Origin: Patescibacteria group bacterium
GTDB lineage: Bacteria > Patescibacteriota > WWE3 > 9FT-COMBO-53-11
Direction of reading: 5' to 3'
DNA: 41,421 bases
NCBI GenBank assembly: GCA_036986255.1
Contig: BTRF01000001.1
Location: 1-41,421 of the forward strand
The notes under the pieces were generated by a model. It was given only the letters and a program-made list of their open reading frames with translations. It was not told where the DNA came from and did no database searches. Position numbers and translations under genes: made by a program. This document shows positions 1-10,476 of this stretch, in pieces. Within the stretch, counting starts at the first letter, position 1; every line of letters starts with the position of its first letter.

Positions 1-3000
1 ACCCTCTCCATCAACACGGCTACCAACCGTCCCGTCATCTTCGGGGCCGGGCTGGTCACGGCGAACAACTTTACTTCTTCGGGGGCGGTGATCACGGGGG
101 GATCGATTGATGGCACTCCCATCGGCGCGGGCACGCCCTCTTCAGGGGCTTTTACGACTTTATCGGCCAACTCGGATGTGGACTTTCTCTTCGCCGGGGC
201 GGAGAACTTAGGAACCTCCGGAACCGTGTCGGGCACCGCGGGGGTGGATCTGATCTCGGCTTCGCTGACCAACGACACTACCAGCGGGAACCAGCGTCTG
301 CTGGTCCTCACCAACACGGGAACGGGGGTCACCGAGAACGGACTTCTCATCTCCAACACGGGAACGGGGACGACGGCGATGGAGATCTCGGGAACTTGGG
401 GAACGGGGATCCTGACCAATAATAACTCCATCAATGCGGGAACCGGTTCGATCACTTCCGGTGCTATTACTGCATCAGGGGCTTTGGCCGTAACCTCCGG
501 CGGGGCTTCCGTCACCGGGGACTTCTCGCTGGACGGGGATCTCTCCTTCACCGGCCCCCAGCAGATCACCTCTTCTACGGGGGACTTGACGGTGGACACG
601 GCCGGGAGCTTAATAATTGCGGATGCGGTGGATCTTAATAATATTTTAGACATCGATGCGGCTTCGGCTTTAGCTTTAACCGTGGGAGATGGAACTTCCG
701 ATACGCTAGTGGTGGATACCGTTGCCGATTCACTCACCGTGACCGGCGGGCTGTCCCAATTGGGCGGGGCGGCGACATCCTTTTCCGGGAATGTTACGCT
801 GGGAGATACCTCCGGAGACATGATCACCTTTTACGGCCTCCAGAACTCCAACCTGGTTCCCGCTATTCACAACTCTTACGATCTGGGCTCCCCTTCCAAC
901 AAATACGCCAACATCTACGCCGTCAATTTGATAGTGGAGTCCACTTCCGCCGAGGGGACTACGGCCAACTCCTTCATCATCAACTCCGACAATGCGACCG
1001 CCGATTTGGAGGATTCCAATCTGGAGTTCGAACGCGGAACCGAAGTTCCCAATGCGATCATCAGGTGGGACTCCGCCGGCGACGAGTTTGACTTTAACTT
1101 TCCGGCCAACATTACCTCGGCCGCTGCCCAGCTGAAGCTCTCCTTCGACGCTTCCAACTACATGACTGCAGGGGTGGCCTCGGACGGGACCGTCACCCTA
1201 AATGCGGCCGGGACGGGGGCGGGCTTCTCCTTCTCGGACGCCGTCACCGTTTCCGCCGGCAACCTGACCGTTTCGACGGGCGCTTTAACGGTTTCCGCCG
1301 GCGGGGCTTCCATCACCGGCGGGCTGTCAACAGACTCTTTAACGGTCTCGGGGACTTCCACTTTCAACGGAATCTCCACCTTCAACACCGACGCCGATTT
1401 CACTTTGGCTGAAACGGAGAACCTCAGCATCTCCAACACCGCCACCGGCACCACGGGAGTGGACCTGATCTCGGCTTCCCTGACCAACAACACCACTTCG
1501 GGCACCCAGCGGGGCTTGGCCCTCACCTTTAACGGTTCGGGAGTGACGGATGTGGGTATGATCCTAACCTACGCCGGGGGCGGTTCGGCCACCACTGCTC
1601 TGGAGATCGCGGGAACTTGGGGAACGGGGATCCTAACCAATGACAACTCCATCAATGCGGGAACGGGTTCAATCACGGGAGGGACGGGGACTTTCTCGGA
1701 GCTCAACCTCACGGGCCCGCTGACGATCACCTCCTCTACCACTCCCCAGATTTCGGTCCGCTTTGATGCCTCCAACCGCTGGGATGCCAGCGTTTCGGCG
1801 GCCGGAGCGGTGGCCTTTGACGCCTTCGGCGCCTCGGCCGGCTTTAGCTTCTCGGACAGCTTGACGGCTGCGGCCGGAGCGACCGTGGGAGACCGTGCCG
1901 GAACGGACACATTCGTGATGGACGCCTTGGGAACTGCCGACGGCACGTTCACCACCTACGACTCCAACCTTCTCCAATTCACGGCCAGCTACTGGGATGG
2001 GTTTGCCGCTCAGGATATTACCGCAGGCATCTTCCTGGACGCCGTCTCCACCGCGCCGGAATACGGCTTGGCTCTTCAGACTGCCGGGTCGACCCGCATA
2101 TTCGTGGACGAGGGCGGTTTTGTGGGTATTGGGGACTCGTCCCCGGCAGCCCATTTGGTAGTAGGGTCCGACGCCGGAGCCAACTACGCCAACGGGGTGG
2201 GAGATGTCTATGTTCAAAACGACTTGGAGGCGGATGGGACGATTTACGCCGGGACGATTATCCTTCCCAGCTTTACTCCCGGGTCGGTGATCTTTGCCGG
2301 AGCCGGCGGTACGCTAGCGCAAGATAATATCAACTTCTTTTGGGACGATACCGCTAAGGAGATTGGGATTGGGACGAATACTCCCGGCTACAAGTTGGAG
2401 GTGGTTGGGGATGCGCGGGTAACGACCAATCTCAGCTTTGGCACGGTCGGGGCTTATCTGGCCGGCGGCAGTCAAGGGGGAAGCATTGAGCTGGGGCCCG
2501 CCAACAGCGGAGCCGGGGAGACGCCTTTCATTGATCTCCACTACGGGGTTGGGACGGCTCAGGACTACAACTACCGCGTGGTCAACTCCGGCAACAATAT
2601 TCTGGAGTTTAAAGAATCCACTGGAGGGACTACGATGGTGATTAACGCCGGCCAAGTGGGGATTGGAATAGGGAGCGTTCCGGAGCAGAGGCTCCATGTC
2701 GGCGGGAATATCGCCGTGACCAATAATCAGGCCTTTATGGCCCGGAACGTCGGGGATACGGCCTACTACGAGCTGGCCAAGCTGGACAACACCGATCTGG
2801 CCCGCTACGGCAACTCAACTTTAAACATTGACATCACTCTCGGCGAGGTTGGGATTGGCATTACCAACCCGACCGGCAAGCTTCAGGTGGTTGGGGGTGA
2901 GGTTCGCATTGGAAACGCCGGAACGGTTGATTACGCCGCGGGGGACGGCGACCTCTATGTGGAAGATGTTTTGGAGGTGGATGGCGCATCATACCTTTCG

Positions 3001-6000
3001 GGTGTGACGGCAGGAGCGACCTCCCTCTCTGGCAACCTTACCCTTCTTAAGACCAACACGGCCACCTCCATCACCCAATACCCCTCCTATGACGCTATCT
3101 TCCAGGGCTCGGGCTGGGACACCACTCTGGTTGCTCCCGCCGATCTCACAGGGAGGTTGAGGGTAATCGCCGGATCGGGAGCGACCGGATCAATTCCCTA
3201 CCGCCTCGGAATTTTTGACAACACCCCCGCCGAGTTTGTTACCTTCGATCTCCTCAACCAAAGGGTGGGGATTGGGGCGGCGAGTCCAGGAGCGAAGCTG
3301 GATGTTCGGGGCGGGGCTGTCTTCAATGAAGACGCCGCTAATGAAGATTTCCGCGTGGAGGCAGTCAGCAACCCCTACGCTCTTTGGGTGGACGCCGATT
3401 ACAACACCAACCGTGGTGCTATCTTCCACAACCAATGGACCTCGACAACCGGACAGGTTGAACTCTCTACCTCTGGGTCCCTTTACGGGCAGGTGTATCT
3501 AAGATCGGGCTTTAACGCCGGATCCAGAAGAGCGTTTTTACGAGCCGCAGCGGCTGGCCAAATTTCTCTTAGCTTGGGGGATGGGTTAATCGGCGGGGAC
3601 TTTGTCCAGTATAGAACTGATGCCGGTGCTCAACAAGTTTATTTTGATTCCGACGCCGCCGAAAGCGTCGTGGGGCATACTTTTTACGCCCGACTGCAAG
3701 TAGGTTCAACTGCTCCTATTATCCTTCAAGGCGATAACGCCACTATTGCGTCCACAGTTGGGAATTTGACGCTTGATCCTATCGGCAGTCTGGTTATCAA
3801 CTCAGGCACAATTGACCTCTCGGGCCAGACCGTAGATGTGACCCTGAATAATGCTGTCGACGCGTTGAATTTCGACAGCAACACCCTGAGCATAGATGCA
3901 TTAAACGACAGCGTCGGCATCGGGACAACTAGTCCCTCTCAAAAACTAGTAGTTAAGGGTAGCGCTAGCGGTGACACTGGAATATTCCGGCTAGAGAACG
4001 ACAATACAGCAGATGGTTACAACATCTTCAGAAAGGATAGTACGGGGTTTCTGCACTTCGTTGGAAACCAGGCAACATACAGCGGCTACCGTTTCTTTGT
4101 GAATGACGCTACTGAAGTTTTGACAATATTAAATAATGGCAACGTCGGCATCGGGACTACAGCGCCTGGGTACAAGTTACATGTAAATTCTAGTTCTGCT
4201 GCAAATCCACTTTATGTTAGTTCCGGTGTATATAACAATGTCGCGGCTTTTATAAGCACAGATGATGGTGCGGTATTAACTTTGTCAGATAATGATACGA
4301 ACTCGTATATAAACGCACAAAATGGATACACATCCATAGGCGGCGCAAATAATCTGAATGCTACTAACTTGAATATTAACAATACATCTGGCAACGTCGG
4401 GATTGGGACGACGGCGCCGAGAGGTAAGCTAGATGTTGTTACCTCAACCACAAACGGGAATAATGTCTCAAGCTATTTTGGTCCGAACTACAGCTTAACC
4501 TTAGCAGGAAGACAAGATAATGATGCCGCAGCCTCAATACTCCAGAATGCTTTCGCAGAATATAATACGACAGGAGCAGCTACTTATAAATGGATAACCA
4601 CTCACGCTTCATTTGGAAGTAGAGGAATAGAATTCGGCTATGGAGCCACCAATGGTATAAAATTTTACGCCGATTCAGCAGCCACAACTGCCAATACAGC
4701 TTTTACTCCCACAGAAAGAATGAGAATAACAAACGCGGGCAACGTTGGGATCGGGACGACGAGTCCAGGTGGCACCTTAGATGTTCGTGGAGATGCATAT
4801 TTTACATCTGATTCATCCGTAGCTATAACTGCTAATGCAAGAATGTCTGCCAATGCAGGAACAAATGATAATTTGGTATTAAATGGAAAAGGGACTGGCG
4901 GAATATATTTGAATTGGGACAAAGGAACCGGTGGTGTGCATGTAGGAGCTGGTAGTACATCTGAAATATTTACAATCTTAAATTCCGGCAACGTTGGGAT
5001 CGGGACGACGAATCCAGGAACAAAGCTTGAAGTTAATGGCGAAGTTACACTCCCCTCTATCAAAGCCAGCACTAGTTTATACAATGGTACTGATATTAAC
5101 GACGCAGTTGCTCATAAAGTTTTTTTCAAAATTCCTCCTGGATCTGGTGTACCGCAATACTACAAGATTGCTAGAATTAAACTTCTAGGTACTTATGCAC
5201 AAAGTCTATTAACCGGTTGGATAAATTCCAGTGGTACTGCTCAGGTGGGTTATGAAAAAACCGCCTATTTTACCATAAAAGCTTACACTCAAGGTACGGA
5301 AACGACAAGTTTTTTAAACTACTCTAAACAAGGCGAAAATACTTCCAATATTATGGTTTATAAAATAGACGACGGGGACGGTTCCGGTCATGATTATTAT
5401 GATGTTTATGTCAATACTTATTGGTATAGCAATGCTGTTGGTGAAATAACTATTATTGGAAAACAGTATGGTAACTCCGCTGTTACGGTCTGGCAAACCG
5501 GATTGGATAGTGGCTCCTCCCCCCCTAGCTCCGGTACTCTGCAAGTTGCTAATGCAAATTATAATTTCGATACTACAGGCAACGTCGGCATCGGGACGAC
5601 GGCGCCGGGGGCAAAATTAGATGTTGCTGGCGGGGCAATAAGAACAGATAATCAGCTTATCTCCACGGTGGTCACAGGGACCGCCCCGCTGTCCGTCGCC
5701 TCTACCACTTTAGTTACCAATCTTAATGCTGATCTTTTGGATGGATACAGTTGGGGCAACGTACCGGACGGGACCGATATTTGGGTCAACGAATCTGGAG
5801 ATACAATGACAGGAACGCTTACCAGCTCTGTCGGGACTGGATCAAACCGTTTTGATTGGACTGGCGGAGCGATGAGAAGAATGACAGATCAGGGCGGGTT
5901 CTCTTTGTATTCTGATAGTTCGGTTTTGTTCCATGCTGGTGATAATGGAGTTACTTTAATATCCGATTTAGGAATTACCAACGCAACTACAACTGAAATT

Positions 6001-9000
6001 CTGTACCTAACAGCGGATAACGCTGTTAAGATAATTACTAACAGGCAGACTGATTATGCGTCATCTAAAACTTTTACATTTGCCACTAGCGGTGATTTAA
6101 CTATTCCTGGCGACCTGACGGTGAGCGGAGGGGATGTCACCGGAATTGGCGGGGCGGCAATTGATCTTGGTGAAACTGCTTCTGGAGATATTTACATGAC
6201 TGGGGATGTTGACATTGCTGGCCACCTGGCGGTTGGGGCAAATGGGGTAATAGGTACTAACAACCTCATTGACATCGACGAAACCATGTCTACCAATGCA
6301 AACACTATGGGCATACGCCTTGAACCAACATTCAACTATACAGCTACGGCAAATAGGACCAACTATGGATTATTGGCTCTTGCCCAAGCAAACACCGTCA
6401 ACGAAAGCACATTCAACGTTGATGTCAGAGGAATTCAGGGTGAAGTATCGGTAGACGGTACCTCAACCCTCAATGATGCCTGGGGAGGATTTTTCCTTGT
6501 TGACCAAAACAGCACCACCGGCCAAATTGACACGGCCCAGGCAGTCAGAACCGACCTTCAAGTGGCTTTATCAACAACAATAACTAATGGCTATGGAATT
6601 TATACTAATTTAACTAACTCCGGCACAATCACCAACTATTATGGCCTTAGAATTGCTGATGTGATCGAAGGTACTCAAACCAATGCTTACGCCATTTACA
6701 TAGACGAGGGTGATGTTATTTTGGATGGGGATGGAAATGGTATTGCCGGAGGAACCAACGCTGGTTCGGATCTCTTTTTCGGAGAAGGACGTGACGCCGC
6801 TATTTGGTACGATGGGGCAGATTTAAATATCGATCCTCAAATCGTCGGCACAGGAGATCTAGTAGTACCAAACGGCAACGTCGGGATTGGGACGACTTCG
6901 CCTGGGTATAAGCTAGAAGTTGAAGGAACTGCAAATATTGATGCAGGCGCGTATGAATTAGATGTTTTAAATACAGGTCTTGGTGTAACCTCATCTGGTG
7001 TATATGGCGGAGATGATGGAACTAAAAAAGCAGTTTATCATTTTGGTGGAGCTGGTGCGGATCTAAGAGTCGGTCCTTCCTATGTTTCGGACAGGGACTA
7101 TATTGAACTTCAAGCTGGAGGAACTGTTTCTTCTGTGGTTACTGTAAATGAGAGATTAGACATATCTAACTCAGGAGGTGATATTACATTGAGTCCATCA
7201 GGCAACGTCGGCATCGGGACGACGACACCAGGAACGAAGCTGGATGTTGCTGGTGGACCGATAAGGACCGACAACCAGCTTATCTCCACGGTGGTCACGG
7301 GGACCGCCCCGCTGTCCGTCGCCTCTACCACGTTAGTTACCAACCTCAATGCGGATTTGTTGGACGGTAGACACGGCTCTGGGTTTTTATATTACAGTAC
7401 GGGAGGTTCACTTGATGTAAATAGCACACCAGGGTACTCACAGCTTTATGTCGGTTCATCTGGTACTTGGACTAATAGGGGGCCAACGGGAAACAATGCT
7501 AGTGCGCTGTTTAGCCTAAATACCCATCCTGGTGACTATTACAGCCAGATATGGTTTGATACTGCCGGAGATACCTTATACCACCGCTCAAAAAATGCAG
7601 GGGCTTGGCGAGGCTGGAATGAAATTTGGACTTCTGGCAACGACGGCTCGGGTTCGGGCCTGGATGCGGATTTGTTGGATGGATGGAACTTGGCCACAGC
7701 CTCCACAGGAAATACTGTAGTTGGCAGAAACGGATCTGGAGATATTAATGCTCGACTTTTTAGATCAGAATACGACACCACCAATGCCACCATTAATTAC
7801 ATTATGACCCAGATTGACACCGTTTCTAATAACTATATTCGTCCATCAACCCCAGCTCAGTTAGTAACAGGACTTGGATTAGAAGCCGGCGGCAGCAGAG
7901 ATATTTGGGTAGAAAAAGCCGGGGATACGATGAGTGGGGCGCTCTCTTTCGGCAGTAGCATGCTTAATGAACTGACTCCAAGATTTATCGTCTATGATGA
8001 TAGCTTCAACGCCAGTTACATGACATACGGCGTCGACGCTGTCACAAGATATAAAGCTACTAGTAATTTTATGTGGAAATCTGTACCTACAGGGGCAACG
8101 CGACTATCTGCTGCCGGTACGCAGACTATGGTCTTGGACACGGCAGGCAATCTGACGGTGGGTGGCAATCTGACAGTGAGTGGGAGAAACATCTATCTTG
8201 GGTCGCAAAGACTTTATGGGGATAACAACGCTTACCTCAATTGGTACGGCAATCATAGTACTACTACTGGTATGCAATTCCGCGACCTGGAAGGCTCTCT
8301 TTATGGATATGTTTATGGTGATGGTAATGGTGCTAACTTCGGTCTGCTGAACTCCGCCGGAGGCTGGCGGGTGAGGGTTGATGCCTCAAATGTAGAGCTA
8401 TACGGCGGAGTCTACATGGGCACTGCATACGCCAGCATCCTCTACGACCGCAACAACACTGGCTACTATGTGGACCCAGCCTCTGGACTCTCAGCCAACT
8501 TCGCCGGCTACATCGACGCTACTTACTTCAGGGATGAAAACAACACCGGCTACTATGTGGATCCGGCGAGTACGAGCAATCTTAATGCGGCAAATTTTGC
8601 CGGCACAGTTGCCGCCAACAACGGTATCAGTGTTGATGGTAGTACTGTTATTGACAACGGCGCCGGCTGGCACCGATCCTATAATGCTACTGGCTGGTAC
8701 AACGGGACGTACGGTGGCGGTGTCTGGATGGATCAATCTACCTATGTACGAGTCTATGGTGGTAAAGGCTTCACCGTTCCGGGCAGCGTCGGCATAGGGA
8801 CGACGAGTCCGGCTACGAATTTAGCTCTTGGTGACTCTTCAAGTACGGTTGCCAGTAGATCAATTCGTCTTTATGGGTATGCCGCCGCCGCTACTGGTTA
8901 CTTTGAAATCTCAGCGAGCGGCAACTGGGCACAGCTTTACAATTCGAGAGGGAATGTTGCCTTTAAGATGGGTACCGATAACCAGTATCAATTTCTTAAT

Positions 9001-10476: not shown

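Follow-up and report, generated by a model that had tools for sequence, protein, structure and literature searches.

How does one uninterrupted reading frame come to hold stretches of widely different base composition? The question is posed by the gene at the start of contig BTRF01000001.1 of a WWE3 bacterium in the Patescibacteria (assembly GCA_036986255.1). This contig of 41,421 nucleotides (nt), which is contig C1 of the genome (G000), was analysed at its full length and is called the window below. The gene is a giant open reading frame (ORF) for a tail-fibre-like modular surface protein. In a first-pass annotation, made from the sequence alone, it had been described as a mosaic, with an AT-rich central cassette of about 5.9 kb between GC-rich flanks, and replacement of a distal, presumably ligand-contacting cassette had been suggested. 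The four 60-nt G+C counts given there (37, 23, 23 and 41) are all exact, and the VGIGT motif placed at 3907-3930 is real, coding for DSVGIGTT. The genome itself comprises 576 kb in 52 contigs with a GC content of 51.1%, is 84% complete with 2.7% contamination, and has a mean G+C content at third codon positions (GC3) of 0.575 +/- 0.058; none of its other contigs carries the missing 5' part of the giant ORF.

The total GC of the gene is 0.58-0.63 over positions 1-3600, 0.39-0.47 over 3900-7200 and 0.52-0.56 after 9600, and the shift lies in the synonymous sites. The GC expected from the amino acids ranges only over 0.48-0.57 along the ORF; the GC3 observed in windows starts at 0.65-0.79, drops as far as 0.27-0.45 and recovers to 0.64-0.71. 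Binary segmentation of the GC3 residual, that is, of the observed value minus the one expected from the amino acids under the codon usage of the genome (404 long ORFs), divides the gene into the segments A, B and C of Table 1, and this profile against the genome bears out the AT-rich centre between GC-rich ends (GC3 0.71/0.41/0.72). The direction of change is shared by all 17 amino-acid classes that had data, as in Glu (0.76/0.15/0.70 in A/B/C), Arg (0.82/0.22/0.67) and Ser (0.83/0.42/0.94), and the change-point statistic reaches 223, whereas 1000 randomisations in which identical residues exchanged their synonymous codons never gave more than 19.9. Amino-acid composition, in particular the Gly/Ala/Thr richness that the first-pass annotation had named as a trivial cause, is therefore rejected: all 17 classes shift, the expected GC3 is constant, and the GC3 residual is uncorrelated genome-wide with Gly/Ala/Thr/Ser content or with GC at second codon positions (rho about 0).

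Measured against the genome, both ends of this range are extreme. The GC3 residual of 150-codon windows has a genome-wide standard deviation of 0.069 and 0.5-99.5 percentiles of -0.23 to +0.17, and the extremes of the giant gene, -0.31 and +0.21, lie beyond both. Segments A and C (GC3 0.71-0.72) stand at about the 99th percentile of the genome's genes and segment B at about the 1st; the flanks, too, are unlike the genome in composition. The GC-normalised dinucleotide distance delta* (x1000) of B is 188, as against a maximum of 104 among 103 equal-length genome fragments; that of 4177-7200 is 177, as against a maximum of 130 for fragments of its own length, and that of segment A is 112, slightly over the genome 99th percentile. 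Segments of very different synonymous-site composition and dinucleotide signature are thus joined in one ORF.

The gene stands by itself in this respect. Its GC3 is the most heterogeneous of the genome, with a statistic of 214 versus 32.5 for the runner-up. Six giant fibre genes of related genomes (1771-6425 aa) have the same GC3 as their neighbours, with statistics of 10-24 and without a large step inside; of 46 related ORFs of at least 1000 aa, not one has a GC3 step of at least 0.2. With the six relatives and the 46 ORFs homogeneous, mosaicism as a general trait of giant fibre genes is rejected, and the mosaic is specific either to an event in this gene or to its assembly. Also rejected is the presence in the bin of a second organism composed like A or like B, since no contig of the bin has such a composition (contig-level GC3 0.45-0.65). 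As a separate observation, a single related giant ORF does show a notable step (L060, 13741-22221): its last ~300 codons have a GC3 of 0.30 versus 0.12 in the first 2530 (statistic 78), possibly a C-terminal module import on a smaller scale.

Table 1. Segments, compositional blocks and modules of the giant gene, with the repeat that follows it (positions in the window)
Feature	Position	Strand	GC3	Expected GC3	Description
Giant ORF	1-10476	+			3491 codons/aa, open at contig start, N-terminus missing; tail-fibre-like modular surface protein
Segment A	1-3444	+	0.712	0.57	orphan Gly/Thr/Ser-rich aa 1-690, then first five VGIG-type modules
Segment B	3445-9801		0.414	0.575	
Segment C	9802-10473		0.723	0.56	
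Block, high GC3	1-3123		0.72		
Block, intermediate GC3	3124-4176		0.54		
Block, low GC3	4177-7200	+	0.35		most AT-rich core; VGIGT modules and unique modules
Block, intermediate GC3	7201-9255	+	0.50		patchy; tip-like domain aa 2450-2625; phrog_24121 match
Block, low GC3	9256-9780		0.32-0.34		
Block, high GC3	9781-10473		0.72		
Patchy 5' transition zone	3445-4176	+	about 0.54		includes VGIGT motif 3907-3930
169-nt joint repeat, copy 1	5576-5744	+	0.54		VGIGT motif plus LISTVVTGTAPLSVASTTLVTNLNADLLDG; GC3-rich island
169-nt joint repeat, copy 2	7199-7367	+	0.71		
Module C1	9277-9729	+			aa 3093-3243; predicted phi29-gp12-type (Peptidase_G2-like) intramolecular chaperone domain, in AT-rich 9256-9780
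Module C2	9781-10473	+			aa 3266-3491; GC3-rich 3' segment, coiled coil and terminal beta-sandwich ending DYWIVN
REP-like 25-mer	10485-10509	.			9 nt past the stop codon of the giant ORF; by blastn against the genome

Regarding the boundaries, the 5' switch is not abrupt and does not lie exactly at position 3907, as had been proposed. The best single change point is nt 3496 (support interval within 2 log-likelihood units, 3442-3610), and it belongs to a patchy zone in which GC3, at a resolution of 20 codons, is low over 3601-3780, high over 3781-3930 and declining afterwards, so that the VGIGT motif at 3907, which closes the last GC-rich patch, is one switch among several. That coordinate keeps a meaning of another kind: similarity to genomes of the same family stops at this motif, at about 3907-3950, whereas GC3 falls earlier. 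The 3' change point, in comparison, is a sharp step of less than 80 nt at nt 9841 (9778-9853), and it falls (aa 3260-3285) in the linker between the modules C1 and C2 of the protein. The reading frame is open across both junctions, homologues are collinear over both in the alignment, and no repeat or shared sequence was found within the genome at either change point (3442-3610, 9778-9853). The block map in Table 1, obtained from a three-state hidden Markov model segmentation of GC3 plus windows of 20-40 codons, replaces the single uniform cassette with a patchwork, in which sub-blocks of GC3 0.35, 0.50 and 0.32 are interspersed with GC-rich islands. Long antisense frames, cited earlier as a reflection of the same shift, are indeed enriched in 1-3500 (seven of at least 100 aa), but they are not absent later, where there are six more, two of them in the GC-rich tail.

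The islands bring in the joints of the protein. It has 15 VGIG-type joints with the consensus VGIGTTxPxxKL, many of the short joints of the gene are conserved at the nucleotide level, and the 24-nt VGIGT motif is GC3-rich within the AT-rich part. The 169-nt joint element occurs twice in surroundings of GC3 0.22-0.41; copy 2 is 85% identical in nucleotides to copy 1 and 81% to a paralogue in the genome (contig C5, 12272-12388), and joint elements in general are 77-85% identical among copies and to the paralogue. A 75-nt stretch of segment C, in module C2, is likewise 81% identical to that paralogue (C5:15726-15800). Large GC3 steps are carried by three of the joints (4144, 6880 and 7207). The motif copies themselves fall into two groups. 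At ten sites of the AT-rich part (3904-9093) they have one nucleotide form, GGCAACGTCGGCATCGGGACGACG, with Val as GTC and Ile as ATC, whereas the five sites of the GC-rich 5' part (2122-3306) have GTG/GTT and ATT, as does the C5 paralogue; the GGCAACGTCGGCATCGGGACGACG core of the AT-rich part is thus more GC3-rich than the copies of the GC-rich part. Since the cassette copies share one nucleotide form unlike the 5' copies, the VGIGT motifs of the cassette have a concerted history of their own.

As to what the gene encodes, the protein leads from the orphan region (aa 1-690) through an array of VGIG-joined modules and further modules, the tip-like one included, to a two-part C-terminal unit. 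Searched whole and as six pieces against Pfam and NCBIfam, and also against PDB sequences, it gave nothing over threshold. The PHROG tail-fibre families 9942 and 18345 match it, PHROG tail-fibre profiles match modules of A and of B, and its database relatives are Patescibacteria proteins of 2000-6000 aa annotated as 'tail fiber domain-containing protein', at 25-35% identity. The orphan N-terminal region contains an internal duplication of about 260 nt (200-455 versus 1415-1676, 73% nucleotide identity) with a 91-nt core (365-455 versus 1586-1676) of 87% identity.

The first half of the C-terminal unit, C1, begins at S3093-D3094 (SDIAE) and ends with SWYDPAVYL, and D-x-A-E is invariant in the alignment of its homologues (A1). 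PF11962 scores 19.0 bits (E 0.001) over nt 9100-10473, under the 25-bit cut-off, and 31.7 bits on the same domain of the homologue P0132. In the AlphaFold model C1 has a beta-stranded body with pLDDT (the model's own confidence score) of 80-95 over model residues 60-200, and its top Foldseek matches are 3suc (E 3.9e-5, prob 1.0) and 3gqh (E 8e-4, TM 0.57 by target length), which are the phi29 gp12 appendage and its C-terminal auto-chaperone fragment. Judged by this model, C1 is a phi29-gp12-type chaperone fold, predicted to cleave itself after its start serine. Peptidase_S74 (PF13884) gave no match on the giant protein even at E<=5, and SDIAEV is without the lysine of SDxxxK. The second half, C2, has helices that begin at residue 233 of the model (aa 3266). 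Its type of tail stands behind S74 domains in P0146 and P0022 and behind G2-type domains in P0046, P0110 and P0130; since it follows either kind of domain, C1 and C2 are separable modules, and the 3' compositional step lies on the border of the two. Apart from this, three fibre-like relatives of 3500-5700 aa (P0146, P0011 and P0046) have a MerR/HTH_17 domain at the extreme N-terminus (aa 17-64 in P0146), which on a presumed surface fibre is an odd fusion or a gene-calling artefact. The first-pass view of the cassette as the distal, ligand-contacting part agrees with this architecture insofar as the cassette covers the distal two-thirds of a fibre-like protein; it also includes half of the C-terminal chaperone unit, which that view had not foreseen.

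The relatives differ from segment to segment. Those of segment A occur in seven of 41 related genomes, with the best ones in the same family: aa 1012-1104 are 70% identical to a same-family locus (G008:C19), the closest match of any stretch of more than 90 aa, and the module at aa 260-373 is GC3-rich (0.69-0.75) in all family copies. In the transition zone, aa 1198-1318 have about 60% local identity to loci of two same-family genomes (G004 and G007, tblastn). The orphan region (aa 1-700) has one homologue only in 5.8 billion proteins. Past about nt 3950 the matches in family genomes are confined to the joint element and the chaperone domain. For the VGIGT modules of the AT-rich part, weak relatives come from other families of the class, and the tip-like domain (aa 2450-2625) has counterparts of 53-71% identity in an archaeal, a Patescibacteria and a Peribacteria bin, whose genomes have a GC of 0.28-0.33. 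Modules of B match tail fibres in 20 phage records, and A has no phage match. In the segment-wise searches that had been proposed, the best relatives of A are thus in family genomes and those of parts of B in distant AT-rich genomes and phages, and no donor was found; no relative is collinear over long stretches at more than 30% identity.

Two further genes belong beside these relatives. In P0125 (L104, a gene of 4888 aa), codons ~900-1350 are homologous to A and have the highest GC3 of that gene, 0.57-0.63 versus about 0.42, with flanks of GC 0.43; this module type may travel from GC-richer sources, or it may have an intrinsic bias. The paralogue on contig C5 (9505-16023, 2173 aa) resembles a conserved family fibre, its C-terminal unit being highly similar to those of G008:C13 and G007:C4, and the giant gene is 32-43% identical to all three. 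This paralogue is itself mildly heterogeneous, with a GC3 of 0.37-0.72 per 100 codons.

Provided that the assembly is right, it is very likely that the segments have had different histories. To this extent the first-pass claim of different histories in one ORF is supported, by composition, by signature and by the absence of a family trait; cassette replacement, its further step, remains a proposal. As to the cause, we hold with moderate confidence that the mosaic arose when recombination introduced foreign fibre modules of lower GC into a family-type gene of high GC3. The gene product would be a very long, probably trimeric, tail-fibre-like surface fibre of the WWE3 cell, built of modules linked by the VGIGTTxPxxKL joints and ending in a gp12-type self-cleaving folding domain followed by the coiled-coil/beta-sandwich tail. 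About 6 kb would have entered by homologous or module-level recombination. These fibre modules, with an evolutionary past in one or several lineages of lower GC (roughly 40-45%), would make up the distal shaft and the tip, together with half of the chaperone unit (its first half), and the recipient would have retained the proximal part and the very last, C-terminal tail. The import would be recent, the silent sites not having drifted toward the host composition. More than one clean event is probable in view of the patchy 700-nt 5' zone and of the GC-rich islands that resemble a resident paralogue, and later gene conversion against resident paralogues probably produced these islands. Recombination as the cause, a foreign centre between family-type flanks as its direction and a changed binding specificity as its effect are what we infer from these data.

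A and C share their GC3 (0.712 and 0.723), as is expected for the two ends of one older gene, and with identical flanks, a module junction at the 3' border of the centre and a patchy zone at the 5' border, import is the best explanation. Several points weigh against it. Tail-fibre PHROG matches occur in both A and B, so phage-likeness does not cleanly separate them. The flanks, with a GC3 of 0.72, are well apart from the resident genome at 0.575, and to call them resident is an assumption. GC3 steps have no significant concentration at the conserved VGIGT joints (P 0.15-0.19), and the lack of a step in the 46 relatives is compatible with an artefact too. Phylogenetic incongruence between segments, which the first-pass annotation had proposed as a test, is not clear: compared with the conserved family fibre (the C5 paralogue and its G007/G008 orthologues), C1 is 32-35% and the end of C2 39-43% identical, so the two are similarly distant from it and provide no convincing incongruence. 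Finally, no donor, near-identical allele or alternative cassette at the same junctions was found in any collection searched. Exact-protein and cluster look-ups for the giant protein gave no match; region-limited searches of the 5.8 billion proteins, from which the records of the genome itself are possibly missing, reached no more than about 50% identity, and that over pieces; metagenome, genome and viral contigs, when scanned, yielded domain-level matches only; and among 134 genomes of the class there is no close relative of the giant gene or of its 4177-7200 core.

The strongest competitor is a chimeric metagenome contig, in which the assembler jumped from a GC-rich fibre gene to a co-occurring AT-richer homologue and back. 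Such an error would be at home in a bin as fragmented, incomplete and contaminated as this one, on a contig that ends within this very gene, rich in repeats and in short joints conserved at the nucleotide level; the step is absent from all 46 related ORFs, and nothing in public data reproduces the junctions. We nevertheless regard it as unlikely. It would require two in-frame switches, and the genome offers no shared sequence or repeat at the change points on which they could have taken place. The bin contains neither a contig of A or B composition nor an alternative continuation of either junction, and no homologue above about 50% identity to B exists among the 5.8 billion proteins, again with the reservation that the genome's own records may be outside the set. 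On the 5' side there is a patchy zone of 700 nt rather than one sharp step, with the GC-rich patch 3781-3906 leading directly into a B-type motif; together with the GC-rich islands, this zone is better explained by repeated recombination than by a single mis-join. On the 3' side, a genome-specific copy of a REP-like repeat (REP, repetitive extragenic palindrome) 9 nt past the stop codon anchors the gene end to resident DNA, as the same 25-mer recurs elsewhere in this contig (11250-11279 and 27914-27938) and on the contigs C12, C8 and C30.

A distinctly more doubtful proposal concerns how import would work: the GC-rich joints conserved in nucleotides, namely the 24-nt VGIGT motif and the 169-nt collar element, could have served as in-register recombination anchors for the import of whole module blocks, along with part of the cognate folding domain, from distant lineages or their phages. 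Statistically the joints find no support as recombination points, given the P of 0.15-0.19 for GC3 steps at them. If it were true, ultrasmall Patescibacteria would re-tool their host-contact fibres in this manner, and the giant gene would have been freshly caught in the act with the silent-site signature of the donor intact.

It is improbable that the whole gene is a foreign patchwork, in which A and C came from a GC-richer relative and B from AT-rich lineages, by accretion and not by replacement of a middle. The GC3 of sister genera of the same family, 0.64-0.74, does suit A and C better than that of the host, A and C lie at about the 99th and B at about the 1st percentile of the genome's genes, and the dinucleotide distance of A also exceeds the genome 99th percentile. 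The genome-specific REP copy just behind the stop codon and the 75-nt stretch of C that is 81% identical to the resident paralogue speak for a resident 3' end instead; beyond that, this account differs from import only in the history of the flanks and is inseparable from it on present data. Divergence in place finds just as little credit with us. Here an old resident gene would have undergone GC-biased conversion in its ends and joints, and AT-biased mutation with weak codon selection in its fast centre, which would suit the coincidence of the GC-rich islands with joints that are 77-85% identical mutually and to the paralogue, the GC3-rich 24-nt motif inside the AT-rich part, and the high GC3 of the A-related region within P0125 (0.57-0.63 versus about 0.42). 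Silent sites over a 10-kb gene share one mutational background, however; segment A is mostly non-repeated orphan sequence and yet uniformly GC3-rich, the N-terminal 2 kb included; the 3' step takes less than 80 nt; the dinucleotide signature of B is outside the range of the whole genome; and comparable giant repeat-rich fibres of relatives are homogeneous. Hypermutation of the type of diversity-generating retroelements is unlikely, as its scale is wrong and the 576-kb genome, 84% complete, has no match to the reverse transcriptase family PF00078.

Directly after the giant gene, on the opposite strand, the window has a Y1 (IS200/RAYT-type) transposase gene at 10536-11225. A Y1 transposase gene likewise stands directly after a 2875-aa fibre gene, on the opposite strand, at 11657-12298 of an unrelated 1.08-Mb contig (L106, the P0126 locus); synteny of that locus with the window is rejected, as the two transposases are 31% identical and no further synteny exists. 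Elsewhere in the genome, GC3 extremes are found in accessory-type genes (C2:23004-24350, C9:15989-17890, C43:2213-3364, C42:3488-4606 and C49:1250-3358). By motif-only assignment, the low extremes include Fic-domain-like (HPFVDGNGRTAR motif), ATPase-like and glucoamylase-like proteins, and the high ones an Fn3-like surface protein, an FG-GAP repeat protein and a VirB4-like ATPase with Pro-rich ends.

Should the mosaic be real, it would be unusually clean evidence that lineages differing in GC have recently exchanged the distal part of a fibre that putatively serves host attachment in an episymbiotic bacterium of the Patescibacteria, also called the candidate phyla radiation (CPR). In this group, as among phages, host-recognition modules would then pass from one genome to others very unlike it, and the linker between chaperone and tail would be marked as a natural exchange point. 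If it is an artefact, it is a warning that giant repeat-rich fibre genes in bins can be chimeric with a frame of 10 kb open throughout.

Among known systems, phage tail fibres offer the first comparison. Horizontal tail-fibre evolution classically conserves the proximal part and exchanges the distal ones. The giant gene is like them in being modular, in its tail-fibre PHROG matches and in the modules that it has in common with 20 phage tail-fibre genes; with phi29 gp12 in particular it shares a C-terminal chaperone fold with Ser-Asp at its start. A tip and a chaperone travelling together would also resemble phage fibres. Unlike these, the gene is chromosomal, in a cellular genome and beside housekeeping genes, and its length is five to ten times theirs; the putatively exchanged block lies internally, takes in half of the chaperone unit and stands out by a GC3 step of about 0.3. 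Examples of mosaic phage tail fibres and tailspikes that combine exchangeable receptor-binding parts with C-terminal intramolecular chaperones are phi29 gp12 (3SUC/3GQH), T5 pb1 and the K1F endosialidase (PMC4690869). From the chaperone families as defined the giant protein departs in that PF11962 stays below its curated cut-off and S74 is absent.

The Rhs/YD-repeat genes of Enterobacteria, which combine a GC-rich core with AT-rich, displaced C-terminal tips, likewise are giant genes in which a sharp compositional discontinuity marks the foreign part recombined in. They differ in that Rhs serves toxin delivery and has its foreign part at the C-terminus, whereas here we have a fibre with an internal block flanked on both sides, followed by no downstream immunity gene or orphan tip. 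RHS/YD families gave no match in the Pfam/NCBIfam scans of the whole giant protein or of its six pieces.

The closest described analogue on a cell appears to be the mosaic adhesive trimer (MAT) fibres of Bdellovibrio bacteriovorus, which are phage-like cell-surface fibres with diversified tips, some of them ending in S74 (PMC10769870; Caulton et al. 2024). On the trimeric beta-helical MAT fibre there is a capping-loop motif, V-G-G/N-pi-x-x-P-x-x-x-L (PMC10769870), to which the VGIGTTxPxxKL joints are similar, with the proline offset to one position later here. MAT proteins have about 1000 aa and share a beta-rich N-terminal domain of 130 aa after the signal peptide, which is the end that the giant ORF lacks; GC content has 0 occurrences in the MAT paper (PMC10769870). 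The nearest kin are the giant 'tail fiber domain-containing' proteins of Patescibacteria/CPR, of the same taxon and the same size range (2000-6400 aa), with the same VGIGT joints, collar motif, G2- or S74-type chaperone and WWIVN tail, and the gene is unlike all 46 of those compared in its internal GC3 step. Horizontal mosaicism of tail-fibre-like genes is already known, and the giant gene of this WWE3 bacterium would add a probable case to it.

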